Source: Bdellovibrionota bacterium FG-2 (lineage in GTDB: Bacteria > Bdellovibrionota > UBA1018). Taken from it: a stretch of 12,913 bases of DNA. The translations under genes and the position numbers were made by a program. The notes beneath the pieces are model-generated. The model ran no database searches. It was not told the origin of the DNA and was given only the letters and a program-made list of their open reading frames with translations. Positions 192 through 12,913 of this stretch are shown here, in pieces (positions within the stretch are counted from its first letter, which is position 1; every line of letters begins with the position of its first letter). The DNA lies in contig JBBCAV010000068.1 of the NCBI GenBank assembly GCA_051382305.1, forward strand, positions 1-12,913, given 5' to 3'.

Positions 192-231
192 CGCCAGTCC
201 TCAGTTCAAAAACCATGTGACCACTGGGATC
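192..231 (-). pseudogene. Relic fragment homologous to an internal part of fur
   Basis: 33/40 nt identical to 1050..1089 with no gaps. Translates as DPSGHMVFELRTG versus DPSGHMVYELNTG in Fur. Confidence 0.6.
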
Positions 232-277
232 GCCCGAAGAGATGGTGAGAGCCGCGCCTGTGGCTAGCTGCTCCCCA

Positions 278-856
278 TTAACGGCACTTCATTCCGCCTT
301 GAACCCAAGCGTCGACTTCCTCTTTCCATTGCTCCAATCCTCCGGTCACAAGATCATTTTCAACCTTGCCTTCGGGCAGCCTTCCACTATTGGGTGTGGC
401 GTCCGCTATACCCCACAGTACACGAGGACTACCCAAGAGATGCTGAGTCAGATCCCGGGCAAGCTTATCTTTATGTTTAAACGAGGCGTGCATCCCTGCA
501 AGCACCGTCTCGCAAGTTTGTTGAGCATTCATGTCGGAGGTATAGAGTCCGGGGCGTGTGAACCATTCGTCAGCAGTTGCAAATCCGGTAACCTCCTGCT
601 TATGACACTCAACACATTTTTCAGCAGTGCGATCAATATGGGTGGTAAAAGAAAGTCCACCCAACCTTTTTTCGTAAAAATCATGACATCCAATGCAGCC
701 CTTGGCTTGAAACTTGGGAAAAAGATAAGTGCTAAAGAGCGATCCATCCGGCTGGACCGCGGCCTTCCAAAAAGTAGTACTCAGGAGCATTACTAAAAGG
801 ACACCCACCCCACCGGCAAACAAGAACTTGAGATATTTATTCATAACCCATCTCAC
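278..856 (-). CDS. Membrane-anchored or exported di-heme c-type cytochrome
   Basis: N-terminal hydrophobic anchor and two CXXCH motifs (CIGCH, CVECH). GTGA overlap with the fur stop; alternative ATG at 844. Confidence 0.75.
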   Translation of the reverse strand: MRWVMNKYLKFLFAGGVGVLLVMLLSTTFWKAAVQPDGSLFSTYLFPKFQAKGCIGCHDFYEKRLGGLSFTTHIDRTAEKCVECHKQEVTGFATADEWFTRPGLYTSDMNAQQTCETVLAGMHASFKHKDKLARDLTQHLLGSPRVLWGIADATPNSGRLPEGKVENDLVTGGLEQWKEEVDAWVQGGMKCR

Positions 857-1440
857 CGACGCTTTGCTTCTCGCTCCGCGTGCGAAGCGCGCTCCTTAAA
901 CAGACACTTCGCGTAGATCACATGCCGATGCTGAACGACCTCAAAGCCCATCTCCATGGCCAACGAGTCTTGCAATACTTCGAGTTTTTCGCTGTTGAAT
1001 TCAAAAATTTCACCGCAGTCTTTGCAGACAATATGATCGTGATGATCTTCGCCGGTGTTCAGCTCATAGACCATGTGACCGCTGGGATCTCGCATGGACT
1101 CATGAAGAATTTTGGCATCACAAAGAGTTTTGATATTGCGGTAAACCGTCGCAGCACCGATTTCGGGGTATTTTTTCCGCACTCGCTCAAGGATTCCCTT
1201 GGCATCCAGATGAACCCCTGAAGAGACGATGAGTTCGGCGATCTGAAACCGCTGCTTGGAGTGTTTCAAGTCTTCTTTAGCAATGTAGGCTTCTAAAGTT
1301 TCGCGCCACTTGGAAACCCTTGCCTTCTCTTGCCCCTCACAGCGAGTTTTTTTTCGCCCGCAAGGCAACATGCACGCGCACTTCTCGGTGCTGCATTTTA
1401 AATTATTTTTGGGAGATCCCGCCATGTTTAAGCTCATCAA
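853..1440 (-). CDS. fur: Fur-family metal-dependent transcriptional regulator
   Basis: SKQR, HLDA, IGAATVYRNIKTL (recognition helix), HHDHIVCKDCGEIFEF, HRHVIYAKC. Start uncertain (TTG 1440, ATG 1437, 1425 or 1371). Metal specificity (Fur/Zur/PerR) cannot be fixed from the sequence alone. Confidence 0.9.
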   Translation of the reverse strand: MMSLNMAGSPKNNLKCSTEKCACMLPCGRKKTRCEGQEKARVSKWRETLEAYIAKEDLKHSKQRFQIAELIVSSGVHLDAKGILERVRKKYPEIGAATVYRNIKTLCDAKILHESMRDPSGHMVYELNTGEDHHDHIVCKDCGEIFEFNSEKLEVLQDSLAMEMGFEVVQHRHVIYAKCLFKERASHAEREAKRR

Positions 1441-1460
1441 ACTCCATTGAGGAGTTTGAT
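1436..1460. promoter_or_regulatory. Perfect 10-bp inverted repeat covering the fur RBS and start codons
   Basis: ATCAAACTCC-ATTGA-GGAGTTTGAT. In the minus-strand mRNA the 3' arm is GGAG-U-UUG-AU(G). The repeat is directly visible; its function is inferred. Confidence 0.6.
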
Positions 1461-1461
1461 A

Positions 1462-1791
1462 TTATGCAAAATGGACAGAGCGTCTGCGACGAGATTTGTC
1501 TTTGCGATTGTCCGAAATTCCCTTGGATAATCCAACTCCGCCGCCTGCGATTGCGCCGGCAACTTTTGCCAAAACAGTCGGAATGATCGTCGCTTCAAGC
1601 AAAGCTCCCACACCAGTTGCACCAAGAGTTACCACGACAAAGCCAATCCCGATGCCAGCCATGGTCTTAGCCCCGAGCAGAAGCGCGTCTTCGGTATTAA
1701 GCGACTTCTCCAAATCGATTTCTGGCCCAGCGCCAAGTCCTTTGTTGGATTTAATTTCAAAATTTTCTGTCTCAAATGTACTGCTGCTCAT
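1462..1791 (-). CDS. Small glycine-zipper membrane protein
   Basis: AAGGGGAG RBS. Acidic N-terminus, GIGIGFVVVTLGATGVG...AGAIAGGGVGL hydrophobic core, basic tail (RKDKSRRRRS). Confidence 0.75.
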   Translation of the reverse strand: MSSSTFETENFEIKSNKGLGAGPEIDLEKSLNTEDALLLGAKTMAGIGIGFVVVTLGATGVGALLEATIIPTVLAKVAGAIAGGGVGLSKGISDNRKDKSRRRRSVHFA

Positions 1792-1823
1792 TGAATACTC
1801 CCCTTGTTACGTCTTCTGTTAAT

Positions 1824-2288
1824 TCAATAATTCTCAAACGAGAACTCATTATCCCGTTTCTTCCCACACGAACCAAAAACTGATGATAAAGAACAATCCC
1901 CATCGCAAGATTCAACGGCAGTCCCTTTTTTCGAACGTTTGCCCAGTTTCATCGCAGTCGCAATCCCCGCGCCCGCAATCGCAGCGCCTACCATAAGAGG
2001 TGAAGCTATGGCAGCCAAGGCGCCTCCCGCCAAAACCGTGCCCACAAACCCACTGCTAGAACCAATTACGGCGCCCACCGCTGCTGAATAGCTCGCGTCA
2101 CGAAACATTTTATCTCGTTGTTCACGCTCAAGAATTGCAATGGCTTCTTTTTTATCAAACGTCGCAAGCCTGCGATGTTTAGTCTTGGCGAGTTTTTCGG
2201 CAACCGCCATGTGCCTGCGATGCATCTTGCAGAGCTCGGGGCTGTAGCCTCTAAATTCGCAGACTTTGCAATCTCTGATAAATGCCAT
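1824..2288 (-). CDS. Membrane protein with N-terminal CxxC-x9-CxxH motif and Gly/Ala-rich hydrophobic hairpin
   Basis: GGAG RBS. CKVCEFRGYSPELCKMH, glycine-zipper-like AAVGAVIGSSSGFVG...GAAIAGAG, C-terminal CDGDC...CG. Confidence 0.75.
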   Translation of the reverse strand: MAFIRDCKVCEFRGYSPELCKMHRRHMAVAEKLAKTKHRRLATFDKKEAIAILEREQRDKMFRDASYSAAVGAVIGSSSGFVGTVLAGGALAAIASPLMVGAAIAGAGIATAMKLGKRSKKGTAVESCDGDCSLSSVFGSCGKKRDNEFSFENY

Positions 2289-2311
2289 TGCCGCTCCAAA
2301 TAGTAAATTCG

Positions 2312-3181
2312 CTAAACTCCAACAAACCCAACCGTGATATCACCGATTCGTTGTTCCTTTGCCCGAATCAGCCGACACACTTTTTGTTCCAACTCACCCG
2401 TTTCCTCCGCCGTCAACTCCGGCGCCACTTTAAGCTCAAGGTCAACTTTACAAACCTGACCCATCGAACGGGTTTTTAAACTTGGTATGTCTATAATCTC
2501 GGGGATCTGTTTTAGCAAGATTTTAATGCGCAATGGCAAACCATCATCCATCGAATAATCCATCAATCCCTGAACTGCGCGGATAAGATTTTCTCCGACA
2601 ATCTTAAATAAAATCAATATGATACAAATTGCCACGACCGGGTCCAGGTGCTGAATGCCCAAGCTCGTACCGATGATGGCCAACAAAACAACCAATGAAG
2701 TGAGGGCATCCGTTCGAACCGCCCAGGCGGCGGACATAATTGTGGGAGAGTTCATCTCAGAACCCACACACCTAAAATATCGAAACAGAAATTCATTTGC
2801 GATCACTGAAGTCGCCGCCACCACCGCAGCCGTTACGTGAGGAACATGATGCAACTCCTCTAATAGCGCTCTCACATTAGAGACCAAGAAAAGCGACATC
2901 ACGACAAGGATCGAAGTGTTCACCAATGCTGAAGCCACAAACTCGATTTTTCCGTACCCGTAAGGATAGCGCTCATCAGGTTTTCTTCCCGCAAAATATT
3001 GGGTAAAAAGAATCGAGGCCGATGAAACAAGGCAAACGGTCGAATGAATCGCCGCGGCCATGACGCCAGCCGACCCCCCAACCCAACCGATATAGTATTT
3101 CATTAAAGCCAAAACAAAACTGATGCCCACCCCAATCCAGGCGGCCTTCACTGCACATTCTTGACACTGCGGCTGTTTCAT
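2312..3181 (-). CDS. mamM: Magnetosome CDF transporter MamM
   Basis: N-terminal C6xxC9, WIGVGISFVLALMK..IGWVGGS, PYGYGKIEF, LLEELHHVPH, RCVGSEMNSP, GLMD and a CDF C-terminal domain. Second CDF of the cluster, closer to MamM than to MamB as I recall those sequences. Confidence 0.8.
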   Translation of the reverse strand: MKQPQCQECAVKAAWIGVGISFVLALMKYYIGWVGGSAGVMAAAIHSTVCLVSSASILFTQYFAGRKPDERYPYGYGKIEFVASALVNTSILVVMSLFLVSNVRALLEELHHVPHVTAAVVAATSVIANEFLFRYFRCVGSEMNSPTIMSAAWAVRTDALTSLVVLLAIIGTSLGIQHLDPVVAICIILILFKIVGENLIRAVQGLMDYSMDDGLPLRIKILLKQIPEIIDIPSLKTRSMGQVCKVDLELKVAPELTAEETGELEQKVCRLIRAKEQRIGDITVGFVGV

Positions 3182-3879
3182 ACGGTTTCCCTCGCAAAAT
3201 AATGAATCGCACGTCGACCAACACTATCGGCCGCGTAAATGTTCATCCCACTTCCAATCGCCAATCCCAACAGTGGGAGCCTCTTGACAACTCCCTTGAG
3301 CAAGGTGCTCGAAACAAGGGCTCGTCTAATCACACCTTCTTCAACTCCGGCAACAAGTCTGCCTGCCAAAACCTTCGAAACCATGCGGTCCACAGCTTTG
3401 GTCACGGTTTTTCGCAGCATCGAAGTCCTAAGCGTTTTTCCAAGATCAGGACTCGCCAATTCTTCACGCCCCACCAATCCTAGCGCGACATCAAATCCCA
3501 CTGCCTCGGGTGAGAAGCCATAGATGTTTCCGATCCGAAGCACCATGACAAACAAGGAGCGCAACACATACAATTCTTCAGGAATGATGCTCCCATAGGC
3601 GATGCCCACGCCAATCCCCGGAATCATCGAAACACTGGCGGCTGTCAAACCCGCCCCCCCACATTGCTTGATGCAGGTATTGACCACACTTTTTGCGCGC
3701 CTCCTCTGGCTCCAGTCGGGATTTTTAGCGCTCAAGGCAAGAGTTTCAGAAACTATCTCATCGTGCGAAATCCCGCCATAAACGCCACGTACACTGGCAG
3801 CAAGCTTCTGATTCAGTCCGGAGAGAAAATCTGAGTCCTGATCCTCTAGGCTTTCACTCGACTTCGCATTCTCACTCAC
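3178..3879 (-). CDS. EcsC-like protein of unknown function
   Basis: GGAGLTAASVSMIPGIGVG...VLRIGNIYGF and KRLPLLGLAIGSGMNIY...VGRRA..YF resemble the EcsC family. GTG start, ATGA overlap with mamM. Confidence 0.6.
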   Translation of the reverse strand: MSENAKSSESLEDQDSDFLSGLNQKLAASVRGVYGGISHDEIVSETLALSAKNPDWSQRRRAKSVVNTCIKQCGGAGLTAASVSMIPGIGVGIAYGSIIPEELYVLRSLFVMVLRIGNIYGFSPEAVGFDVALGLVGREELASPDLGKTLRTSMLRKTVTKAVDRMVSKVLAGRLVAGVEEGVIRRALVSSTLLKGVVKRLPLLGLAIGSGMNIYAADSVGRRAIHYFARETV

Positions 3880-3897
3880 GCATCACGCTCACGCTTC

Positions 3898-4167
3898 TCA
3901 TTCAACATCTAGCCGCTTCTGGTTCTTGCGCCGCTCTTTTTCCAGTAGCTTTTTAAGATGGCGAATGCGTTCAAAAAAGAGCTCTTCTTTTCGAAACACA
4001 AAATAATAACCACACAAAAACCCCGCAGCGAAACAGGAGAAGATTAAGAATATGCTCCTAAAATGAGCCTTCCCAGTCAGAAAAACCACTGGAACGTGCG
4101 AGGAGTTTTGAACGACGAAAAGAATCAGGAGAAAAATTCCGATAATGTAGAACACTTTTTTTACCAT
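3898..4167 (-). CDS. mamL: Magnetosome membrane protein MamL (LapA/DUF1049-like)
   Basis: 89 aa with two hydrophobic segments linked by FVVQNSSHVPVVFL and a strongly basic C-terminal tail (RIRHLKKLLEKERRKNQKR). GAGGAG RBS. Context upstream of mamM. Confidence 0.75.
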   Translation of the reverse strand: MVKKVFYIIGIFLLILFVVQNSSHVPVVFLTGKAHFRSIFLIFSCFAAGFLCGYYFVFRKEELFFERIRHLKKLLEKERRKNQKRLDVE

Positions 4168-4198
4168 CTCAGTCGTCTCCTCTTAGCTTTCAAAATCT

Positions 4199-4630
4199 TC
4201 ACGGCTTAGCCACTGAATGCATCAACTCCCCACACACAGGACAAATCGGAAGTCCAATGCGCCCGCATTCAGGACAAACAAACATGCCGTTTCCAAGGGG
4301 TTGCATGATCTTTTTACAGGTTCCGCACACAGGGTAGCCATGGGTGTGATCTTTGTCACAGACCACAGAACCTTCGACTGACCGCTGAGGGATGACATCT
4401 TGAGCATTAAACGCGACTTTATCGCCTCGTGGATCGCCTTTACCATCAGCTGGGCCATCCACAGGGTGATGCCCTTTTCGCAAATCATCGGCGTTAATGG
4501 TTCTCTTGCTGCCCGAAAGCACAAAGCTCACGGCCAAAACGACCACCAATGCGATGAGGCCCAGAATGCCCCAGATTTTGGTACTATCCGAGCCGCTGTT
4601 TGGCCCTTCGCTTGAGCCGCTATTTGACAT
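4199..4630 (-). CDS. Single-TM protein with multiple CxxC motifs (Mad-type accessory protein), 143 aa
   Basis: Start moved from 4765 to the ATG at 4630 (MSNSGSSEG), giving an 11-nt overlap with the upstream gene instead of 146 nt. TM IWGILGLIALVVVLAVSFVL, then CDKDH, CGTC, CPEC, CPVC. Confidence 0.8.
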   Translation of the reverse strand: MSNSGSSEGPNSGSDSTKIWGILGLIALVVVLAVSFVLSGSKRTINADDLRKGHHPVDGPADGKGDPRGDKVAFNAQDVIPQRSVEGSVVCDKDHTHGYPVCGTCKKIMQPLGNGMFVCPECGRIGLPICPVCGELMHSVAKP

Positions 4631-5018
4631 AAATAACGTCCATCTTATGTCTGCAAACCTGGCAGACGGGATCGCCATTAACCGCATAATCAGGCAAACC
4701 CGTCGCGCCACAGACCGGGCAGACATATTGCCCCGCCTGTTTTGATACGACAGTTTTCTTGGCAACCGGCACAGGCTGAAGAATCTGTAAAACGCGATCT
4801 ACGGTGTTGGCTTGAGGCGCTGCTGCTGGTACGCCGCCAGCAGCTTGCAAGTATACGGCAGCATCCTTCATATCGCCTTTCCACTTATCGTAGCCATTGA
4901 TCGTGACATAAAGCCCCGTGGTCAGAAGAGTTACGACAAAAACTACGATTAACCAAAGTCCTGTCTTACCCTTCACGGCCAATAAAGAATCCGACGGCGT
5001 TGATTCATCTCGCTTCAT
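4620..5018 (-). CDS. Single-TM protein with C-terminal 2xCxxC metal-binding module (Mad-type accessory protein)
   Basis: AGGAGA RBS, TM (LWLIVVFVVTLLTTGLYVTI), Ala/Pro linker, YVCPVCGATGLP...PVCQVC. Confidence 0.8.
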   Translation of the reverse strand: MKRDESTPSDSLLAVKGKTGLWLIVVFVVTLLTTGLYVTINGYDKWKGDMKDAAVYLQAAGGVPAAAPQANTVDRVLQILQPVPVAKKTVVSKQAGQYVCPVCGATGLPDYAVNGDPVCQVCRHKMDVIYVK

Positions 5019-5046
5019 GATCTGTCTCCTTCATATCTCACAAATT

Positions 5047-6024
5047 TCATTGCGCTGTTCCCCAAGCTTCTTTGGCAAAATTAATTGGAACCGCAAAACC
5101 AATCCCTGTAAAATTCCCACCCTGCACATACGAAGCAAAAGTAATCCCGACCACTTCACCATCTGCGTTGACTAAAGGACCGCCCGAATTGCCATCGTTG
5201 ATCGTGGCATCGGTCTGAATGGCCCCCTGAACCAGCATCCCATTTACGGTCACATCCTTTTTGCCGCTGACAATTCCGGAGGTCACGGTGCCAGAAAGTG
5301 AAAAAGGATTACCGACCGCCATCACAACATCGCCCGTACGAAGGCGATCAGAATTTCCCATTCGGGCAAAAGGAAATTTTTCGGTCGAACGAATTTTCCC
5401 AATCACAAGTGGTGAATCAGGATCTCGCGCAATAATGCGCGCCGTAAATTGATTTTGACCTGCGCGGTAGAGCACAACCTGCAAATTATTGTTATCGCCT
5501 ACAACATGCTTCGTCGTGATGAACAGTCCCTTCGAATCAATGATCACACCTGATCCCACGGCCATGTTCGAGTTCATAACGAATGGATCGCCCATCTTGA
5601 TGCCCGTATTGGGGTCTGTCCCGGTCCTTTGATTAGGCACCACAATGATCTTAATTACAGCAGGCCGCACCAAACTCACAACCTGGTGCAGGCTTTCGTC
5701 AATCGCGCCTCCATCACCCGGTTGGGGAACTTGAAGCGCGACTCCTTGGGGTTCCACCGCGGGTTCCATGCGACGCTCGAACCTCGGTTCCATTCGAAGT
5801 TCTACCCTGGGCTCCATTTGCGGTTCCAACTGCTGCTCAACTTCACCGACAATCGGCATCCGAGCACTCGTTCGCGGCGCAGGCTTCGTCGGCCACATCG
5901 CTCTTACGAAAAATCCTGCCACAAATGCGACGACGAGAAACTTAAGGATAAACACCCAAGTCGCGGATTGCGCGATGTTCTCCTTCGTAATGCGAAAGTC
6001 TTTTATTTTATCAAATCCCGCCAC
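5047..6024 (-). CDS. mamE-Nter: Membrane-anchored trypsin-like protease domain, MamE-Nter-like, possibly inactive
   Basis: TM, Pro/Glu repeat linker, GSGVII, TTKHVV, IQTDATINDGNSGGPL. The expected DLA motif reads SPLV. GTG start with GAGGTGA RBS, 14-nt overlap with the upstream gene. Name from gene order. Confidence 0.6.
   Translation of the reverse strand: MAGFDKIKDFRITKENIAQSATWVFILKFLVVAFVAGFFVRAMWPTKPAPRTSARMPIVGEVEQQLEPQMEPRVELRMEPRFERRMEPAVEPQGVALQVPQPGDGGAIDESLHQVVSLVRPAVIKIIVVPNQRTGTDPNTGIKMGDPFVMNSNMAVGSGVIIDSKGLFITTKHVVGDNNNLQVVLYRAGQNQFTARIIARDPDSPLVIGKIRSTEKFPFARMGNSDRLRTGDVVMAVGNPFSLSGTVTSGIVSGKKDVTVNGMLVQGAIQTDATINDGNSGGPLVNADGEVVGITFASYVQGGNFTGIGFAVPINFAKEAWGTAQ
5746..5829 (-). 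repeat. Degenerate 12-bp coding tandem repeat (7 tetrapeptide units)
   Basis: LEPQ-MEPR-VELR-MEPR-FERR-MEPA-VEPQ. On the + strand gg(t/c)tcca recurs at 5750, 5762, 5786, 5810 and 5822 (multiples of 12 bp). Confidence 0.8.
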
Positions 6025-6736
6025 GCATCACCTCGGCTGCAAAGCCCATTGCCACATCCATTGGAATCGCAAATCCCTGCCCAGAAAATGCTCCGCTCTC
6101 CGTATTCACAGCCAGTATCGCGGTATTGATTCCCACTACCTCGCCACGAAGGTTAACCAGGGGCCCCCCACTGTTTCCCTGATTGATCGGCGCATCCGTT
6201 TGAATCAAGCCTTCATAATTTAATGCTCCCACCGAAAGCGATCGGGAGGTGTTCCCCACGATGCCACTCGTAACGGTGTGACCCAGCCCAAAGGGGTTGC
6301 CGATGGCGAGAACCCGATCCCCAGTCCGCACTCGCAGTTGAGTGTTAAACTTAGCCGTCGCAAAGCGCTCGCCATTACGCGGTCTGATTCGAATCAACGC
6401 AAGATCTCGCTTCTTATCTGAATGCACGATGCGCCCGATGTATTTTTGCTCTTTCGCTTTCCAAACCGTTACCTCAATACTTTGCGAATCGCCCACGACA
6501 TGATCATTGGTCAAAATATAGCCATCATCCGAAACCAAAACTCCCGAACCGATACTTTGATAAAAAGCGCCTCCATTACCACGAAGCGCCCGGATACTGA
6601 CCGTAGCAGGTCTGACCGCCGCAACCGCTTCTTTGGTCTTGATCCCCATGGCTTTCGGACCCGCAAAAACGGAGGACGCGCCAAAACAGGCAAAACTCAA
6701 AATCAGCAAAATTGCGCGAATCCATCTACGAATCAA
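6011..6736 (-). CDS. mamEO: Trypsin-like (HtrA/DegP-type) serine protease domain with intact triad, MamEO-like
   Basis: Signal peptide-like N-terminus. GSGV, TNDHVV (His), RDLALI (Asp), IQTDAPINQGNSGGPL (Ser). No PDZ. TTG start with AGAGGTGA RBS. The family call is firm; mamEO versus mamE-Nter rests on gene order only. Confidence 0.6.
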   Translation of the reverse strand: MIRRWIRAILLILSFACFGASSVFAGPKAMGIKTKEAVAAVRPATVSIRALRGNGGAFYQSIGSGVLVSDDGYILTNDHVVGDSQSIEVTVWKAKEQKYIGRIVHSDKKRDLALIRIRPRNGERFATAKFNTQLRVRTGDRVLAIGNPFGLGHTVTSGIVGNTSRSLSVGALNYEGLIQTDAPINQGNSGGPLVNLRGEVVGINTAILAVNTESGAFSGQGFAIPMDVAMGFAAEVMRGGI

Positions 6737-6740
6737 AAGA

Positions 6741-8342
6741 TCACCTCTTTTCAGCCGAACCCAACACCGCCACGCTTGGCTTTAACTTTCCCTCGCGAAA
6801 CGCTTGCACCACATCCGCCAGAGACCCAAATGTTCCCGCATAAACCGCGACTTTCGCACCTGTTAAGGCATCAAAAGCCCTGGGCCCAATACGGCCTGCA
6901 ATCACCGCGTCCACATGGTTCTTCAAAAGCCATTTGGCCGTAATAATCCCCGTTGCATCCGAGTTTGGATTAAGAAGGGTCGTGATAGAGTTTGATTTCA
7001 AATCAACGATCTGAAAATAAGGGCTCTTTGAAAACATAGGAGACACCTGCGAAGAGGCTCCGGAGCTCATGGACGCAACGGCCACATATTTCATTCCGTT
7101 ATCAACGGGCAGCATCTGCGCCACTTGTGAAGCAGCTGCAGAATTCGGCAATTGGTTGCCCTGACGATCGACTCCAGGAGCCGCAATCGTCACGAAGCGA
7201 TGCCTACCTCCGCGCCACACATCAACCATCGCGCCCCGAGCGCCTTCTGTTGCTTCCGCAAATTGTCTCAGCGTCGTCGTTGGCATTCCGTTTACCGCGA
7301 CAATCACATCGCCCGCCTGAAATCCCGCATCGAATGCAGGGCCAATTGAAATTCCATCCACGGCAATCCCTTTAGTACCTGAGGGCAAGCCCAATTCTTT
7401 AGCTTCTAAAGGATCCAGCGGAACCACGGTCAAGCCCAACCAACTCGCTTCAACTTCAATGTCCGCGCCAGGCAACGCCGGAGGTTCACCCACAGCCGCT
7501 ACCGGCATTGTTGATGCCGTCACAAGAACATCCAATGCATTGCCGTTTCGATAGACGTCAAGCTTGAGGCTATCACCTGGTTTCTTATTTAACAAAACTT
7601 CGGATAATCCAATTCGGTCATTTACAGGAGTCTTATCGATATTACGAATAATGTCGCCCCTGACTAACCCACTTTGTCCCGCAGGCCCCCCCGGGAAAAC
7701 ATGCGAAACAATCACGCCGCGCGAATCCGGAAGCTTCAGCTGGCGAACCATTACGGCATCCAAAGACTGAACATCGATCCCGATCCAGGCGTCTGCATCC
7801 ATATTTGCGGCTACGACTTTTGCCGTCATTTTTTGTTTAATTTTGTCTTGGGTGATCTTCAGGGACAGCTTGACGTTTAAGGATTGCTTGGCGTCGTTGC
7901 GCATGACCCTGATCTTGATTCGATCTCCATCTTTTTTCGCGGCAAGCAAAGCGGCAAGCTCCGCAACACTTGTGATTTTAGTCGCGTCCACACTCGTAAT
8001 CACATCGTCTCTTTTAAGACCGGCCAATTCGGCTGGAGAATCGCGTTGCACTTTTTGAACATACACACCCTGAGGTGCATGCAGTTCAAGCTTTGTCACC
8101 ATGTCAGGAGTGATGTCCTCGACATCAGCGCCCAACCAAATCGGACCCCCGTTTGCTGCACCAACAGGCTGATTTAGGGCAATCTGAATCGGAGTCTCTT
8201 CGTTTCTTTTTGCGTTAGGCTTATCGACAAAATAGATGAGCGATCCAATCACAACGGTGATTGAGACCGTGACGATGAGAAGGGTTCGTACGTCGAGGTT
8301 TTTCCAAACACTATTTCTTTCATTGTTATTTTGGCTACTCAA
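6741..8342 (-). CDS. mamE-Cter: MamE-Cter-like protein: TM, 3 PDZ, NifX/NifB-like domain
   Basis: N-terminal TM and three HtrA-type PDZ units starting WLGADV, WIGIDV, WLGLTV. C-terminal VAVAS...SPYFQIVD...VDAVIAGRIGPRAF. No protease domain and no Cys. TTG start with AGGAG, TTGA overlap with the mamP stop. Confidence 0.7.
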   Translation of the reverse strand: MSSQNNNERNSVWKNLDVRTLLIVTVSITVVIGSLIYFVDKPNAKRNEETPIQIALNQPVGAANGGPIWLGADVEDITPDMVTKLELHAPQGVYVQKVQRDSPAELAGLKRDDVITSVDATKITSVAELAALLAAKKDGDRIKIRVMRNDAKQSLNVKLSLKITQDKIKQKMTAKVVAANMDADAWIGIDVQSLDAVMVRQLKLPDSRGVIVSHVFPGGPAGQSGLVRGDIIRNIDKTPVNDRIGLSEVLLNKKPGDSLKLDVYRNGNALDVLVTASTMPVAAVGEPPALPGADIEVEASWLGLTVVPLDPLEAKELGLPSGTKGIAVDGISIGPAFDAGFQAGDVIVAVNGMPTTTLRQFAEATEGARGAMVDVWRGGRHRFVTIAAPGVDRQGNQLPNSAAASQVAQMLPVDNGMKYVAVASMSSGASSQVSPMFSKSPYFQIVDLKSNSITTLLNPNSDATGIITAKWLLKNHVDAVIAGRIGPRAFDALTGAKVAVYAGTFGSLADVVQAFREGKLKPSVAVLGSAEKR

Positions 8343-9619
8343 AGTGTTCTCCTTCTCCCGGGACCGACGGGAGCAATCGGAGCCGTACCCAGCCCACCCT
8401 GAGCATTACCCGTGGTAGCTTCCCTCAAAGATCCTTGTTTGAAGGCAGCAATGGCGCCCTTCACGTCTCCACTTACGCCAGGATACATTTTGATCCCTAA
8501 AGAAGTGAGACTCGCTGAAGCCCCTTGGCCGATATAACCACAAATAACCGCTTCAACCCCCATGTCCATCAAATCCTGAACAACTTGAGGTCCGGTCCCG
8601 CCCGCATTTTGCACGACTTTGTACGAATTGCGTTTGAGATCCACGATCACAAAATAAGGTGATGTTCCTAGATCATTTGCAACGACCGCATTCACATCTT
8701 TGCCGACCGCCGCAATCGCAACGATTGTTGAATCGGGCGTTGGATCAGCGACCGCTGTATTAGGATCCACCTGGGCGACCGTCATCGCGGCCACAGGTTG
8801 ACCAGGCAGTGCGCCGTTTGGAACGCCTTCAGCAGCCTGAGCCGCAATATCAGGGATTGCTAACCTAAATATCTTCTCGCGTCGCTCGCGCCACACGCTG
8901 AGACGAATCACATCGCCGGCCGCAAACGCGCCCAACGCGCGCTCTAGTTCCGCAATCGTTTCCACCTTGCGATTATCCACGGTGAAAAACATGTCACCAT
9001 TCTGCATTCCGAGATCTTCGGCTAAACTTCCGGGAAGCACTTTGGTGATGATCGGACCCTTTTTATCGGGAAGATTAAGTTTCGTCGTCAAAGTCGCATC
9101 TGCTTCAATTAACTCCAGGCCAAAAATACTTCGGGGATCAATCGTCTTCAGTGCAACGGGTTTTCCTGCGGCATCAACGACCTTGTGGCACACATTGCAA
9201 GGACCCCAATAAGGATGGGGCATATTCGCCGTAATGGGGATCGTCCCCCCCTCAATCGGCGCGCGACTTTTGGGCCCGATCACCTGGTGACATTTGGCAC
9301 AGTCTTGTCCGAAGTTTGGATGGGTTACGACATCACTTAATTTAATCGGAGGAATTCCCCCATTGGCTGCCGCCACTGCCTGGCCCTGCATCGGAGTACC
9401 CAGGGCCACAGGAGTTCCCACGGCCACTTGCGCGCCCGCCTCCTTCGTTTTCGGATGGTGAAGAGCCCGATGATACCGGGCCGCATAGGCCGGGTCTCGC
9501 TTCATTTGAATCTCGTGGTAGGTGATCCACCCCACAGTGAGGAGAACCACTGCGACCAGGGTTACCAACAGCGGTCGCAGCTCTTGCTGACAAAACTTTT
9601 TATTGAGGTCTTTGCTCAT
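8339..9619 (-). CDS. mamP: MamP-like protein: TM, 2 magnetochrome domains, PDZ, NifX/NifB-like domain
   Basis: PPIKLSDVVTHPNFGQDCAKCH and TIPITANMPHPYWGPCNVCH fit the magnetochrome pattern. PDZ (FGLEL...VLPGSLAEDLGMQNGD). C-terminal VAIAA...SPYFVIVD...GVEAVICGYIGQGA resembles a NifX/NifB-like domain. Confidence 0.8.
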   Translation of the reverse strand: MSKDLNKKFCQQELRPLLVTLVAVVLLTVGWITYHEIQMKRDPAYAARYHRALHHPKTKEAGAQVAVGTPVALGTPMQGQAVAAANGGIPPIKLSDVVTHPNFGQDCAKCHQVIGPKSRAPIEGGTIPITANMPHPYWGPCNVCHKVVDAAGKPVALKTIDPRSIFGLELIEADATLTTKLNLPDKKGPIITKVLPGSLAEDLGMQNGDMFFTVDNRKVETIAELERALGAFAAGDVIRLSVWRERREKIFRLAIPDIAAQAAEGVPNGALPGQPVAAMTVAQVDPNTAVADPTPDSTIVAIAAVGKDVNAVVANDLGTSPYFVIVDLKRNSYKVVQNAGGTGPQVVQDLMDMGVEAVICGYIGQGASASLTSLGIKMYPGVSGDVKGAIAAFKQGSLREATTGNAQGGLGTAPIAPVGPGRRRTL

Positions 9620-10713
9620 GATTCAGCCCCTAAGAATGGTTTGAGTCGCACACTGATTTCGCCGTCAAATTCAAGTTTCGATCGCACGGCTTGCGATACG
9701 GCCTTTTTGAGTTCATCGAACTGGGCCACTTTAAGTGTCTTATCCACAAAGACGGTCACATCAACTTCAGCTCTCGAACCCAGCTCCCGAGTCCGCACAT
9801 GCTCGATGCCTGAAACGCCCGGAATCCCCATCACAACATCTCGAATCGTTTCGATCTTCTCGCCGTCCATCGAAACATCCATAAGCTTGGTCACTGATTC
9901 AACCAGCATGTCCGCAGCCGACTTCAAAATCATAATCGCCACGATCACCGCAAAAATCGAATCGATCACCGGAAACGAAACTTTTGCGCCAATAATCCCC
10001 ACCAAAACCGCAGCAGACGAATACGTGTCTACTCGACTCTCCAATGCCACTGCCGCGACCGAGGGTTTATTAAATCGCACATCAACGCACTGCCCTTGGC
10101 GCGCCATGATCTCGTTGACGATAATCGAAATCAACGCACCCCACGCAGTCACAAAGTGTGGCGCCACATATCGGCCACTGACTAGATCGCGGATACCATC
10201 GATTAAAATGAAAACACCCAAGACCACCAAAAATGCGGCGATCAAAAGGGCCGCAATGTATTCGACTTTACCGCGTCCGTAGGGGTAGTCCTTGCCTTGC
10301 GGCCGATCCGCCACCTTCAGCGCAATAAACATCATGAAACTTGCGAGCAAATCGCCCAAAGAGTGAATCGCATCAGCAAAAAGAGCCTTGGATCCCCCGA
10401 CAATCCCGAGATAAGCCTTGATCGCAACGAGAAAAATATTTCCGGCCACGTTGACGGTCGCAACGTAACTCAAACACTTATGGCACTTCTGAGGCGGGAT
10501 ATACCTGCCGTCCGCATCATAATAACCGGCTTTCTGGCCGCAGTCCTTTTGACAGGTCTTCTCACAGCCCGCTTTTTGATGCTGACAGCACGCTTGGCCA
10601 GAGTCGGGTGAATCGCCAGATTCTGATGACTCGCTTGCTTCAGACAATTCGGCCGAATCGTTCAAGTCATCGTTCTCGGTGTCGTCTTTGTTTTTCTTTG
10701 GGGATCCATCCAT
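9616..10713 (-). CDS. mamB: Magnetosome CDF transporter MamB with N-terminal extension
   Basis: CDF motifs (GGSKALFADAIHSLGD, YPYGRGKVEY, LMDVS, C-terminal dimerisation domain), pre-TM1 CxxC (CHKC), and MamB-like segments SGRYVAP...IVNEIM.R...CV and SSAAVLVGII....FP..D. ATGA overlap with the next gene. Confidence 0.85.
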   Translation of the reverse strand: MDGSPKKNKDDTENDDLNDSAELSEASESSESGDSPDSGQACCQHQKAGCEKTCQKDCGQKAGYYDADGRYIPPQKCHKCLSYVATVNVAGNIFLVAIKAYLGIVGGSKALFADAIHSLGDLLASFMMFIALKVADRPQGKDYPYGRGKVEYIAALLIAAFLVVLGVFILIDGIRDLVSGRYVAPHFVTAWGALISIIVNEIMARQGQCVDVRFNKPSVAAVALESRVDTYSSAAVLVGIIGAKVSFPVIDSIFAVIVAIMILKSAADMLVESVTKLMDVSMDGEKIETIRDVVMGIPGVSGIEHVRTRELGSRAEVDVTVFVDKTLKVAQFDELKKAVSQAVRSKLEFDGEISVRLKPFLGAES

Positions 10714-10727
10714 GATCTTTTTCCCGT

Positions 10728-10868
10728 CTATTTACGTTTATTATAAGGATCTTCGGACTCACGCGTCTCACGATCCTGCGCATTGAGCCGCTCTTCTAAA
10801 GCGAGCTGTTTCTTGTAAACTAGGATAATACCAACAAAAACCCCGATCAATAACAGCAAAGCTAACAT
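10728..10868 (-). CDS. Small 46-aa single-pass membrane protein (absent from the ORF track)
   Basis: Read by hand: ATG at 10868 preceded by AAAGGGGAcgct, TAG at 10728-10730. Translation MLALLLLIGVFVGIILVYKKQLALEERLNAQDRETRESEDPYNKRK. Fills the only large gap in the operon. Confidence 0.8.
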   Translation of the reverse strand: MLALLLLIGVFVGIILVYKKQLALEERLNAQDRETRESEDPYNKRK

Positions 10869-10895
10869 AGCGTCCCCTTTGTTTTACTCTGGTCC

Positions 10896-11366
10896 CTAAA
10901 AAACATAGTGTCCTTTCAATAACGAAAAACACAAGACGATGAACATGAACATCTGTGTGTGCAGAAAATACAGCCCCTTGCGAACATTGGGGGGGTATTT
11001 AAATCGCAAAATGGCTCCGCCAAAAGTCAGCCATCCCATAATGATCAGGCCGGCCCAAAGCCAGTTGTTGTGCCAATGTGTAACATAGCAGTGGATGCAC
11101 ATGGCGATGAATCCTGCGACATTAAGCCAACAGTGAACACGCAAGAATTTTGCAAAAAAGATATCGTCCTTGAGCATGAACCACAGACGCAGATGCTTGG
11201 CGGGAAGATAAGATTGGGCTGCGATAAAAAGCAGCATACAAAGGTTTCCCGACCCGGTCGCCAGATTGTAGTCACTCCAAAACGCAAACAAAACGCAAAA
11301 CACAATAAAAGCGATCAAAAGAATCACTTTAAGTCTCATGTCTGAGGTTTTAAACACTGCTTTCAC
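10896..11366 (-). CDS. mad2: Polytopic membrane protein, probable Mad2
   Basis: About 5-6 hydrophobic segments with several membrane-proximal His (RVHCW, CIHCY, FLHTQ, KGHY). GTG start with GGAG upstream. Position between mamQ and mamB matches my recollection of mad2; the name rests on synteny. Confidence 0.6.
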   Translation of the reverse strand: MKAVFKTSDMRLKVILLIAFIVFCVLFAFWSDYNLATGSGNLCMLLFIAAQSYLPAKHLRLWFMLKDDIFFAKFLRVHCWLNVAGFIAMCIHCYVTHWHNNWLWAGLIIMGWLTFGGAILRFKYPPNVRKGLYFLHTQMFMFIVLCFSLLKGHYVF

Positions 11367-11405
11367 GTTTCGAGCTCCATCTCTCCACAGCTTATCGGGC
11401 TGTGT

Positions 11406-12146
11406 CTACTTTGGGTTAAAATCCAAGGGTGCAAATTCAGTCGCACTTTTCTCAGGTTCAAAATACGGCAAGGGTTTAAAACGAAAGGCAACCGCGAAAA
11501 AATTACCAGGTATCGTAGCTAATGCCGTCGTATAATTATCAACACTCACGTTGTAGCGTACCCGGGCCGCGGCCAGTTCTTTTTCGGCACTTTCAATGGT
11601 CGCGACCAAGAAATGAAACTCGGCACTGAGCTTGAGATCTGGGTACTGCTCCGCGATCCCGAAAAACTTACCCATAAGCTCGCTTGATTTTTTATCACTT
11701 TTCTCGACTAAGGCCTTTTTCATATCCGGGGTCATCCCAACCATCATCGTTCGGAATTCCATTACGTTTTTGAAAATATCCCGCTCATGCTGAGCATAGG
11801 CAATGACGGATTTTTCGAGATTGGCCGAAAGATCCCGTCGCATTTGCATATAGACATTCACCGAAGCGGCGTCTCTCTGGGCATAAGAGCGAAGAAACCA
11901 AAAATTATTGTAATAATACACGGAGATTGCCACGACGGCGGTCAATGAAACGACCACCCACCATTTTCGCAGGACATAGCCAAGGCGCCAGGCGACTGCA
12001 TAGATCCCTTCGCGTGGGTTTCCATGCTCGTCGTATGAACCCGCCCCCTCTGGACCATCGGTTTCATCGTCAGAATCCTCAAGTTCTGCTCGTTCCGACT
12101 TATCTTGCGAAATCTTCCGAATGATATGCCTCACGCGCCCAGGCAT
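11406..12146 (-). CDS. mamQ: Magnetosome LemA-family protein MamQ
   Basis: Single TM (WWVVVSLTAVVAISVYYYN) followed by LemA motifs (QMRRDL, YAQHE, AEQYPDLK, RVRYN, PGNFFA..F.F..LPYF). Acidic N-terminal region. TAATG overlap with the mamA stop. Confidence 0.9.
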   Translation of the reverse strand: MPGRVRHIIRKISQDKSERAELEDSDDETDGPEGAGSYDEHGNPREGIYAVAWRLGYVLRKWWVVVSLTAVVAISVYYYNNFWFLRSYAQRDAASVNVYMQMRRDLSANLEKSVIAYAQHERDIFKNVMEFRTMMVGMTPDMKKALVEKSDKKSSELMGKFFGIAEQYPDLKLSAEFHFLVATIESAEKELAAARVRYNVSVDNYTTALATIPGNFFAVAFRFKPLPYFEPEKSATEFAPLDFNPK

Positions 12147-12904
12147 TAATCGAGCTCCTCGCTACTTTCAAGCTCAAGAACCTTCTTAAAGCACTTGCCT
12201 GCTTCTGTCGCGTCCCCTGACGCCTGAAGCACAAATCCAAGATGCTGATAATACTTGGCGACATCAGGCTTTAGCTCAATGGCTTTCCTAAACTCCGGAA
12301 TCGCCTTATCAAGCTCCCCTTTTTTGTCATGCGCGATCCCCATCTTGTAATAAAGCTCGCTATCGCCGGGGTTTACCGCTGCTGCCTCACCTAAAACTTT
12401 AAGGCATTTGTCATAATCTTTGGTACGCAAATAAGTTGAACCCAGCTGAGACAGCGCATCCTTATTGTTAGGAACCAGACTCAAGGTCTTTTCAAAGCAT
12501 TCAACCGCTTTGTCGAGCTGATTGTTCTTAAAATAAGCTTTACCCGCCAAATAGAAAATCTGCGGGGACTTCGTCCCTTGCTTCATCACATTTTCAAACG
12601 CATCGATGGCTTTTTCGTATTCGCCACGCTTAAGGTATTTTTTCCCAAGGTTCTCGTGAATCTGGGTTTTGTCTTTTTGATCGATGGAGAAGATATTATT
12701 GTAGCCCTCAACCGTCTTGGCCAAGAGTTTTCCTGCCATCAACATCGTCACATGAACAAAATAATCAAAACCAACAACGAACGAGGTCTTGTCCATACTC
12801 TTTTCGGACTTACCTTCTGGGTCTCTCTTCTTTTTAGCCTTTGGCTCGGGTTGATCGAGGTCTATTTTCTTATCGCTTTCGTTGTTCATATTATTCGTCG
12901 TCAT
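12146..12904 (-). CDS. mamA: Magnetosome TPR protein MamA
   Basis: Five consecutive ~34-aa TPR units (e.g. SELYYKMGIAHDKKGELDKAIPEFRKAIELKPDV) after a charged N-terminal segment. Lies next to LemA, CDF and magnetochrome genes. The start is 9 nt from the window edge, so the RBS cannot be assessed; M6 is an alternative start. Confidence 0.9.
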   Translation of the reverse strand: MTTNNMNNESDKKIDLDQPEPKAKKKRDPEGKSEKSMDKTSFVVGFDYFVHVTMLMAGKLLAKTVEGYNNIFSIDQKDKTQIHENLGKKYLKRGEYEKAIDAFENVMKQGTKSPQIFYLAGKAYFKNNQLDKAVECFEKTLSLVPNNKDALSQLGSTYLRTKDYDKCLKVLGEAAAVNPGDSELYYKMGIAHDKKGELDKAIPEFRKAIELKPDVAKYYQHLGFVLQASGDATEAGKCFKKVLELESSEELD

Positions 12905-12913
12905 GTTTTGCTG

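Follow-up and report, generated by a model that had tools for sequence, protein, structure and literature searches.

The stretch of DNA described here is contig JBBCAV010000068.1 of Bdellovibrionota bacterium FG-2 (GenBank assembly GCA_051382305.1), analyzed at its full length of 12,913 nucleotides and referred to below as the window. It carries what we regard, with high confidence, as the core mamAB-type magnetosome operon of a predatory-type bacterium of the Bdellovibrionota, represented by a metagenome-assembled genome (MAG), a genus-mate of Kiruna3_bin-3974 in class UBA1018 ("Bdellonasia"). The window makes up the whole of contig C68 (12913 bp) in a MAG of 4.34 Mb and 433 contigs, with a GC content of 49.8%, a completeness of 85%, and a contamination of 4.4%. 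The assembly break, 9 nt upstream of the mamA start, cuts the operon; since the window is a complete contig, this truncation is due to the assembly.

All credible genes lie on the minus strand between positions 278 and 12904. There are 18 of them: 17 open reading frames (ORFs) of 89 to 533 amino acids (aa) and one 46-aa ORF with a single transmembrane (TM) segment. The original prediction, a reading of the raw sequence, had described 18 co-oriented genes at most 39 nt apart, and this description holds because the conserved 46-aa ORF is included: with it, the largest gap is the 39 nt between mamQ and mad2, and without it, a gap of 182 nt opens between mad2 and mamB. Six gene junctions overlap, by 1 to 14 nt. 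The features are listed below in the order of transcription, with domains assigned by Pfam and NCBIfam profile scans of the window proteins; BW-1 is Desulfamplus magnetovallimortis BW-1, of the Desulfobacterota.

12891..12913, minus strand: 3' end of a second mamI-like gene (last 7 codons and stop), the remainder lying at the end of contig C227
12146..12904, minus strand: mamA, TPR protein, 252 aa (five TPR_2 stretches in Pfam; NF040959 MamA)
11406..12146, minus strand: mamQ, LemA family, 246 aa (LemA 107.5 bits; NF040966 MamQ)
10896..11366, minus strand: mad2, 156 aa, hydrophobic, with several His in hydrophobic stretches (assigned by homologue names)
10728..10868, minus strand: conserved single-TM ORF, 46 aa (GGAG-like site upstream; protein kept in 3 of 3 related genomes)
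9616..10713, minus strand: mamB, CDF transporter, 365 aa (Cation_efflux and ZT_dimer; MamB 237.7 bits versus FieF 125)
8339..9619, minus strand: fmpB/mamP-like gene, 426 aa (two magnetochrome CxxCH repeats, PDZ, and a NifX/NifB-like domain, Nitro_FeMo-Co)
6741..8342, minus strand: fmpA/mamE-Cter, 533 aa (three PDZ_2 domains; Nitro_FeMo-Co 58.3 bits)
6011..6736, minus strand: mamEO-like trypsin/HtrA protease without the TauE half, 241 aa (Trypsin_2 114 bits; MamE model 166.8 bits)
5047..6024, minus strand: mamE-Nter, 325 aa, with an N-terminal TM segment, a repeat-rich linker, and a trypsin domain (Pfam and NCBIfam)
4620..5018, minus strand: TM protein, 132 aa, with a C-terminal CxxC...CxxC zinc-ribbon-like motif (BW-1 homologue after mamE-Nter)
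4199..4630, minus strand: second TM and zinc-ribbon protein, 143 aa, with three CxxC motifs (probable start at Met46 of a 188-aa ORF)
3898..4167, minus strand: mamL-like gene, 89 aa, with two hydrophobic stretches and a basic C-terminal tail (LapA_dom 29.4 bits)
3178..3879, minus strand: EcsC-like gene, 233 aa, between mamL and mamM (profile search and PF12787)
2312..3181, minus strand: mamM, second CDF, 289 aa (MamB 199.6 and MamM 197.6 bits versus MntE 89)
1824..2288, minus strand: 154-aa protein with N-terminal Cys residues and a Gly/Ala-rich hydrophobic core (BW-1 homologue downstream of mamM)
1462..1791, minus strand: 109-aa protein, Gly-rich in its hydrophobic segment and basic at its tail (weakly homologous to the BW-1 gene that comes next)
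853..1440, minus strand: fur paralogue, 195 aa, extended at the N terminus by a Cys-rich stretch of about 50 aa (FUR 108.4 bits)
278..856, minus strand: dihaem c-type cytochrome, 192 aa from GTG (CIGCH at residue 54, CVECH at residue 81)
193..279, minus strand: short fur-like remnant behind the cytochrome gene (83% identity over 42 nt with an internal part of Kiruna3_bin-3974 fur)

Every component named in the original prediction (TPR, LemA, two CDFs, magnetochrome/PDZ, split trypsin and PDZ proteins, and a MamL-like protein) was recovered by the Pfam and NCBIfam scans and the comparison with BW-1, and the operon does end in fur and then a cytochrome, as the FUR domain and the two CxxCH motifs of the 192-aa protein attest. 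The genes said to be missing from the window, mamK, a TauE gene, and mamI, are indeed missing as whole genes, but the last 7 codons of a mamI-like gene are there (12913..12891). A 54-aa ORF overlapping mad2 (10768-10932) is probably spurious. Rfam and tRNA scans of the window found nothing. Promoter-like sites in the window occur at the level of shuffled sequences (13 versus 12.1 +/- 4.0), and there are 26 terminator-like sites versus 15.1 +/- 4.3 in shuffles, none of which falls behind the last gene.

The transport and compartment genes are closest to their magnetosome counterparts. MamA scores 193.2 bits with NF040959 (cut-off 200), compared to 85.8 bits for the next TPR family, and is 93% identical to its counterpart in Kiruna3_bin-3974, 82% to that in LJ_bin-4497, 63% to that in FG-1, and 28% to BW-1 MamA. 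For MamQ, NF040966 is the only NCBIfam match (75.7 bits, under the cut-off of 250), and a BW-1 MamQ query gives 95.5 bits with the window LemA protein versus 69.7 bits with the other LemA protein of the genome, on contig C120. The MamL-like protein is 33% identical to the product of a 109-aa BW-1 gene directly upstream of mamM, which matches LapA_dom at 25 bits. MamB and MamM are the best NCBIfam matches of both CDF proteins. BW-1 MamB finds the first window CDF at 234 bits and the second at 162 bits, while BW-1 MamM finds the second at 186 bits and the first at 159 bits; reciprocal best hits with BW-1 hold for MamB, MamM, and MamQ. In a maximum-likelihood CDF tree of 19 rows, the clade of the first CDF joins BW-1 MamB (support 86/90) and that of the second joins BW-1 MamM (90/94), and the sole other CDF of this genome, on contig C288, groups with CDFs of Pseudomonas and Phenylobacterium beyond a branch of 100/100 support. 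A grouping of the CDF, LemA, and TPR proteins with housekeeping homologues, which the original prediction had named as the outcome that would speak against it, was thus seen neither with the Mam models nor in the reciprocal hits or the tree. The tree covers only two magnetotactic lineages, since distant Mam loci were not reached: a Fur query against the contigs of other genomes gave one relevant locus, a MamB alignment search gave four lineage relatives and two generic CDFs only, and a homologue search with MamB residues 76-365 gave 42 proteins, none of them named MamB. MamB of the window carries a Cys-rich N-terminal extension of about 75 aa (10490-10713) that is kept in close relatives and is lacking from the 293-aa BW-1 MamB ORF.

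The next group of genes is more specific to magnetosome clusters. Among the 125 homologues of Mad2 are one that bears the name "magnetosome protein Mad2" and a BW-1 protein whose annotation gives homology to DMR_41120 of RS-1 (Solidesulfovibrio/Desulfovibrio magneticus), the gene called mad2 in PMC4287615; the window protein is 48% identical to its BW-1 counterpart. Within the phylum, 6 of the 401 genomes sampled carry the gene, counting this one, and within the family 3 of 57 further genomes do, in agreement with the patchy distribution reported in PMC13200544. The parts of a MamE-type protease, its PDZ domains, and magnetochrome are all present but spread over four genes, one with two magnetochrome repeats and PDZ, one with three PDZ domains, and two with trypsin domains. 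The FmpB homologue of BW-1 likewise has magnetochrome (one Pfam-detected stretch), PDZ, and Nitro_FeMo-Co domains. FmpA is 33% identical over 510 aa to a BW-1 protein with the same domains, in which Nitro_FeMo-Co scores 22.2 bits, under the cut-off. The mamEO-like product is 43% identical to the protease part of a 734-aa trypsin-TauE protein of BW-1, and mamE-Nter is also 43% identical to the 308-aa BW-1 protease that follows mamEO. For both proteases, the MamE model ranks second in NCBIfam, behind a generic Do/HtrA model. Candidate catalytic His, Asp, and Ser motifs can be picked out by eye in the mamEO-like translation, read by itself and not against a reference protease. We had considered the NifX-like domains as a possible novelty and rejected them as such: RS-1 FmpB is described with one in PMC4287615, and both BW-1 homologues have one.

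The BW-1 locus, obtained via its Mad2 and then extended, is largely colinear with the window. Its order is mamI, mamA, a mad1-like gene with two CxxCH repeats, mamI, mamQ, mad2, a 51-aa TM ORF, and mamB; then an fmpB-like gene, an fmpA-like gene, mamEO (a trypsin-TauE fusion), mamE-Nter, a small ORF, and the homologue of the 132-aa gene; and finally a NapH-like gene (called mad6 after the description in the RS-1 paper, PMC4287615), an acidic 149-aa gene, mamL, mamM, a PDZ+CitMHS gene, and homologues of the 154-aa and 109-aa genes, with mamK further on. Of the 18 window genes, 14 have sequence homologues in BW-1 that follow one another in the same relative order, and for the 46-aa ORF there is a positional analogue only. 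The two clusters also share the magnetochrome-PDZ-NifX and the three-PDZ (plus NifX) architectures, although the identities are only 26 to 48%. The operon therefore fits the prediction of a deep-branching, Desulfobacterota-like cluster in which mamE is split: mamE-Cter (fmpA), mamEO, and mamE-Nter follow in the BW-1 order and are homologous to the BW-1 genes, and mad genes are present. By the same comparison, the "non-standard gene set" of the original prediction is not supported. There are differences nonetheless. In BW-1, a mad1-like gene and mamI lie between mamA and mamQ, whereas here the mad1-like gene is upstream of mamI; the remark that mamA abuts mamQ with no mad1 in between was correct for the window, and the contrast with Desulfobacterota clusters drawn there holds for BW-1, but a mad1-like gene does exist in this genome, on contig C227. 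TauE is fused to mamEO in BW-1 and is separate here, on contig C305. BW-1 has mad6, the acidic 149-aa gene, the PDZ+CitMHS gene, and mamK, unlike this cluster, and it lacks the EcsC-like gene, the second zinc-ribbon gene, fur, and the cytochrome.

RS-1, compared here from the text of PMC4287615 alone, shares the order mad1 (DMR_41150), mamQ, mad2, mamB, fmpB, fmpA, an FmpB (DMR_41100) with magnetochrome, PDZ, and NifX/NifB domains, and a separate tauE gene. It differs in having mamK and mad6 and in an FmpA described with three PDZ domains and without the NifX-like domain (PMC4287615). Mutant phenotypes are given there for mamB, mamQ, mamL, mad1, mad2, fmpA, fmpB, and tauE. With the mamAB clusters of Alphaproteobacteria (Magnetospirillum AMB-1 and MSR-1), the window has in common mamA, mamB, mamM, mamQ, mamL, mamI, a mamE-type protease, and magnetochrome, as judged by NCBIfam models with scores under the equivalog cut-offs; it is set apart from them by a mamE split over three genes and by the presence of mad genes. 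The alphaproteobacterial gene content further includes full-length mamO, mamK, mamJ, mamN, mamP, mamS, mamT, and mamR, none of which is present here.

The closest matches of MamB are in the Oligoflexia-titled genomes Kiruna3_bin-3974 (93%) and LJ_bin-4497 (79%) and in "Bdellovibrionota bacterium FG-1" (67%); a fourth relative, Kiruna_bin-06382, came from the MamB alignment search. Kiruna3_bin-3974 is labeled as belonging to the same genus, and LJ_bin-4497 and FG-1 to the same family. The impression of Bdellovibrionota or Oligoflexia that the Fur sequence had given in the original prediction fits these titles. The order of the first sixteen genes, from mamA through the 109-aa gene, is unchanged in Kiruna3_bin-3974 (83 to 99% aa identity) and FG-1 (41 to 80%), and is kept in LJ_bin-4497 (64 to 88%) except for the fifteenth, the 154-aa gene, which is placed elsewhere. 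In three relatives the orthologous operon sits on contigs of 159.8, 88, and 39 kb, with flanking genes that match other contigs of this MAG at 55 to 97% identity. All 18 ORFs are intact, with lengths that agree with those of their orthologues. Against Kiruna3_bin-3974, the ratio of nonsynonymous to synonymous substitution (dN/dS) is 0.015 to 0.109 in all 15 genes tested, with dS of 0.32 to 0.91; against LJ_bin-4497, it is saturated for five genes.

These organisms have been described. "Bdellonasus magneticus" FG-1 and FG-2 are reported as magnetotactic Bdellovibrionota of GTDB class UBA1018, for which the name "Bdellonasia" is proposed (PMC13200544, ISME Commun 2026); transmission electron microscopy of FG-1/FG-2 cells shows about five bullet-shaped magnetite crystals, and chains have been imaged in FG-1. 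According to the same paper, cluster synteny is conserved in the class, with mad17, mad23, mad25, mad27, mad28, mad29, and mad30 present and mamK absent; toxin-antitoxin genes occur near clusters of this type; 21 further Bdellovibrionota MAGs have clusters; and genus CAIRTR01 holds FG-2 and three cluster-bearing MAGs, Kiruna3_bin-3974 among them. Four cluster-bearing Bdellovibrionota genomes from stratified lakes were reported in a 2024 preprint (10.1101/2024.04.27.591411), which also cites six Bdellovibrionota genomes reconstructed in a 2020 study. The gene order found here is thus already known from close relatives, and the operon has been described in print for the same genus. The original prediction had allowed that its novelty would be lost if a described magnetotactic genome showed identical synteny, and this is the case: FG-1, described and imaged, shares the order of the first sixteen genes, and PMC13200544 names Kiruna3_bin-3974 as a cluster carrier. 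The suggestion of a poorly sampled lineage was sound and was true until recently, and both a magnetosome operon and the right phylum had been recognized from raw sequence. What the window adds is a gene-by-gene map, with the 46-aa ORF, a lineage-restricted EcsC-like gene, a relocated mad1-like gene, a TauE gene unfused from mamEO, and the fur-cytochrome tail.

With the Bdellonasia clusters of FG-1, FG-2, and the CAIRTR01 MAGs such as Kiruna3_bin-3974, the cluster of this genome shares the order of the first sixteen genes, a mad1-like and mamI block upstream, the absence of mamK, a Mad28-like actin, and response-regulator arrays nearby. Much of the corresponding material in this MAG was found on other contigs by using the flanks of the clusters of the three relatives as queries. 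Contig C227 (5.5 kb) adjoins the window; its tail and the window end map 8 nt apart on Kiruna3_bin-3974, with one reading frame running across both contigs. It encodes a ParA-like ATPase, proteins of 176, 135, and 203 aa, and two mamI-like genes, of which the second is cut. The first MamI has 68 aa (NF040963, 55.2 bits). The 203-aa protein (4462-5073), encoded upstream of mamI, is mad1-like, secreted, and Cys-rich, with one CxxCH, and is 51% identical over 87 aa to the BW-1 mad1-like protein. Contig C305 starts within the TauE gene, whose best NCBIfam match is the MamO C terminus. Contig C158 has an FeoB-like gene and a third mamI-like gene (52.8 bits). The mamI and FeoB genes that the original prediction had proposed to look for in the flanks are therefore present, and no mamK was found. 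Homologues of the LJ_bin-4497 mad region lie on contigs C389, C7, C158, C305, and C194 and include ParA/MinD, AAA (ClpB-like), receiver, and actin-like domains; apart from Mad2, which takes its number from a named homologue, Mad numbers are assigned from position and from the list in PMC13200544.

A 383-aa actin-like protein on contig C7 (1880-3031), adjoining a MinD-like ATPase, matches Pfam Volactin at 243.7 bits and the MamK model at 29 bits; it is 84% identical to an FG-1 gene product and 44% identical to that of a BW-1 gene about 40 kb downstream of mamM. We infer that this Volactin-family protein probably corresponds to the Mad28 of PMC13200544. It was found through synteny with LJ_bin-4497 and Pfam Volactin. 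Candidates sought with MreB_Mbl (PF06723) were discarded: the weak matches in this genome are FtsA, DnaK-like, and Hsp70-like proteins, and the 367-aa candidates in the relatives are PilM proteins in type IV pilus operons. Contig C389 carries a mad-like array with a second actin-like protein (399 aa, MreB-like_C, 3627-4826) that is kept in FG-1 and was not found in BW-1, as well as a candidate toxin-antitoxin pair (1350-1951). As for MamK, the best match to NF040964 in each of the four genomes is MreB, at 79 to 82 bits (cut-off 400), this genome being 85% complete.

Taken together, these results argue strongly for the core mamAB-type operon of a UBA1018 genome. The CDF pair, MamA, MamQ, and MamL, by which a core cluster is recognized, are encoded in the window, and MamI is encoded on contigs C227 and C158; MamK, also part of that set, was not found. 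Several observations weigh against this assignment. The magnetosome cluster is known for this genome from genes alone. The NCBIfam scores of MamA, MamQ, MamB, MamM, and MamI all lie under the curated equivalog cut-offs; these models, we presume, derive mainly from Alphaproteobacteria. In the CDF tree, which contains no alphaproteobacterial or Nitrospirota MamB or MamM, the Mam-side branches have only moderate support (86 to 94), and a non-cluster CDF of BW-1 and one other CDF lie in an unresolved fork on that side. BW-1 MamK, mad6 (NapH-like), and the PDZ+CitMHS (mamN-like) protein have no match in the whole MAG. Finally, the cluster is spread over at least six contigs of a 433-contig, 85% complete MAG, and its completeness and gene order beyond the window therefore rest on synteny with relatives.

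The alternative that survives best, although we consider it improbable, is that the host has lost, or never had, the ability to make magnetosomes, its cluster being a relic or incompletely transferred. The lack of mamK and of matches to BW-1 mad6 or the mamN-like gene is in keeping with this, the restriction of Mad2 to 6 of the 401 phylum genomes, this one included, would agree with gain and loss, the fur-like remnant behind the operon is a sign of local rearrangement, and the genome, a MAG, has been read from its genes alone. Decay is nevertheless hard to reconcile with 18 intact ORFs of orthologous length and with a dN/dS of at most 0.109 in every gene tested; other contigs carry accessory mad, feoB, tauE, and actin-like genes; and the same mamK-less set, with the same order of the first sixteen genes, occurs in FG-1, in whose cells magnetite chains have been imaged (PMC13200544). 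Far less credible is a contig mis-binned from a co-sampled Desulfobacterota magnetotactic bacterium. The contig is short (12.9 kb) and holds cluster genes only, in a set that resembles that of BW-1, but its GC content (0.46 to 0.54) surrounds the genome-wide 0.498, its genes are 41 to 99% identical to those of Bdellovibrionota relatives, compared to 26 to 48% for BW-1, and in those relatives the operon sits on the long contigs mentioned above, with flanks that match the rest of this MAG. The idea that housekeeping paralogues (CDF efflux, LemA, TPR, and HtrA proteins) merely happen to be clustered can be set aside, for although the Pfam domains are all generic and the Mam scores fall under the curated cut-offs, the cluster has magnetochrome repeats, Mad2, and MamI-like proteins, for which we know of no housekeeping role, the reciprocal hits and the tree set the Mam copies apart from the other CDF and LemA proteins of the genome, and Mad2 occurs in only 3 of 57 other family genomes.

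For a functional magnetosome operon, the roles of homologues in RS-1 and Alphaproteobacteria suggest how the products could work together. MamQ (LemA), MamL, and MamB, with the MamI proteins of the adjoining contig, would build the magnetosome membrane compartment, into which the CDF pair MamB/MamM would import Fe(II). FmpB, with its magnetochrome, PDZ, and NifX domains, may set the Fe(II)/Fe(III) balance for magnetite nucleation together with Mad2 and the Mad1-like haem protein. The three-PDZ FmpA and the two HtrA-type proteases of the split MamE are predicted to organize and process magnetosome proteins, and the TPR protein MamA presumably coats the organelle. Since no MamK was found, we assign chain alignment provisionally to the Mad28-like actin and to coiled-coil Mad proteins encoded on other contigs.

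The fur-cytochrome tail appears to be lineage specific and is the only feature of the operon that looks unreported. The N-terminal extension of Fur (1290-1440) has the motif C-x-C-x3-C-x6-C, which is kept in Kiruna3_bin-3974 and LJ_bin-4497; the second Fur of this genome, on contig C140, is 45% identical and without the Cys-rich extension. Orthologous fur genes adjoin magnetosome genes in Kiruna3_bin-3974 (93%) and LJ_bin-4497 (74%). Only here and in Kiruna3_bin-3974, however, does fur follow the 109-aa gene. In LJ_bin-4497 it opens the mad cluster in a trio with the 154-aa and 109-aa genes, some 28 kb upstream of mamA; in FG-1 it is not at the cluster, and only a 43% identical Fur is found, on another contig. 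BW-1 has no match to Fur at E<=1e-8. The 154-aa/109-aa/fur module thus seems to move within the cluster. The LJ_bin-4497 trio occupies 453-1889 of a locus on contig C15 of that genome, and a second copy of the 109-aa gene remains after mamM there (18406-18735 of the operon locus).

The cytochrome stands directly after fur only in this genome, a response regulator taking that place in Kiruna3_bin-3974. Its translation start is likelier to be the ATG at 844 than the GTG. Of 61 family genomes sampled, 3 have homologues, this genome among them, and all three carry the cluster; FG-1 has none that we could find. An Atlas search returned only clusters named "hypothetical protein," one with Paired_CXXCH_1 in 38% of its members, and the protein resembles small cytochromes of hypothetical status. 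In a tblastn comparison, the fur-like remnant beyond the cytochrome has 15 of 29 residues identical to the window Fur, including a 13-residue stretch with two differences, and it points to a local rearrangement that set the cytochrome behind fur in this genome.

The tail might plausibly couple iron or redox sensing to the operon; against this proposed role, the cytochrome lies outside the cluster in Kiruna3_bin-3974 and LJ_bin-4497, two of its three carriers. A more specific and rather speculative proposal, which we think doubtful, is that in the subclade of this genome, Kiruna3_bin-3974, and LJ_bin-4497 the cluster-borne Fur, with the cytochrome adjacent here, is a dedicated iron/redox sensor that tunes the magnetosome genes. 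To our knowledge, the control of magnetosome formation in deep-branching magnetotactic bacteria is little understood, and a dedicated Fur would, if real, offer a route into it. No such in-cluster regulator is described in the literature searched, and the word "fur" does not occur in the main text of PMC13200544, its figures and supplements aside.

Among the smaller genes, the 46-aa ORF could encode a magnetosome micro-protein that annotation has missed; its protein is conserved, with nucleotide differences between copies, in Kiruna3_bin-3974, LJ_bin-4497, and FG-1, and sequence similarity to the 51-aa TM ORF at the equivalent position in BW-1 is undetectable. The 132-aa zinc-ribbon protein is 28% identical over 107 aa to its BW-1 homologue, and an Atlas search with it gave no usable match. 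The second zinc-ribbon gene was found in Bdellovibrionota relatives only, with no BW-1 match; its probable start at Met46 is where the LJ_bin-4497 and FG-1 homologues begin, or nearly so. The 233-aa protein is, judging from profile similarity, a divergent, lineage-specific EcsC-like protein: a word-based search gave four homologues, itself included, a profile search gave 108 proteins at E<=1e-3 and only six at E<=1e-30, and 9 of 10 remote matches scanned have PF12787 EcsC, 5 of the 10 above its cut-off. No BW-1 counterpart of it was found, and its AlphaFold model (mean pLDDT 46.8) is too poor for use. The 154-aa protein is 32% identical over 90 aa to a 137-aa BW-1 ORF, and the 109-aa protein is 50% identical over 30 aa to its BW-1 match (E of 5e-4), with identities of 95% to Kiruna3_bin-3974, 65% to LJ_bin-4497, and 72% to FG-1.

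On the other contigs, the N-terminal Cys motif of the mad1-like protein resembles the motifs of the window zinc-ribbon proteins, and its CxxCH is single, compared to two in BW-1. The 135-aa protein of contig C227 has a hemerythrin-like N-terminal motif, as seen by eye. It belongs to a three-gene set (ParA-like ATPase, about 177 aa, and 135 aa) that occurs twice in the genome, next to the magnetosome genes on C227 (1924-3788) and near an apparent toxin-antitoxin pair and an integrase-like region on C264 (10953-12826). Besides MreB and FtsA, the genome encodes at least two actin-like proteins, those of C7 and C389 described above. A third actin-like gene, encoding 372 aa in LJ_bin-4497, is represented here by two ORFs of 110 and 221 aa (C389, 2053-3059), which may reflect a frameshift or an assembly error.

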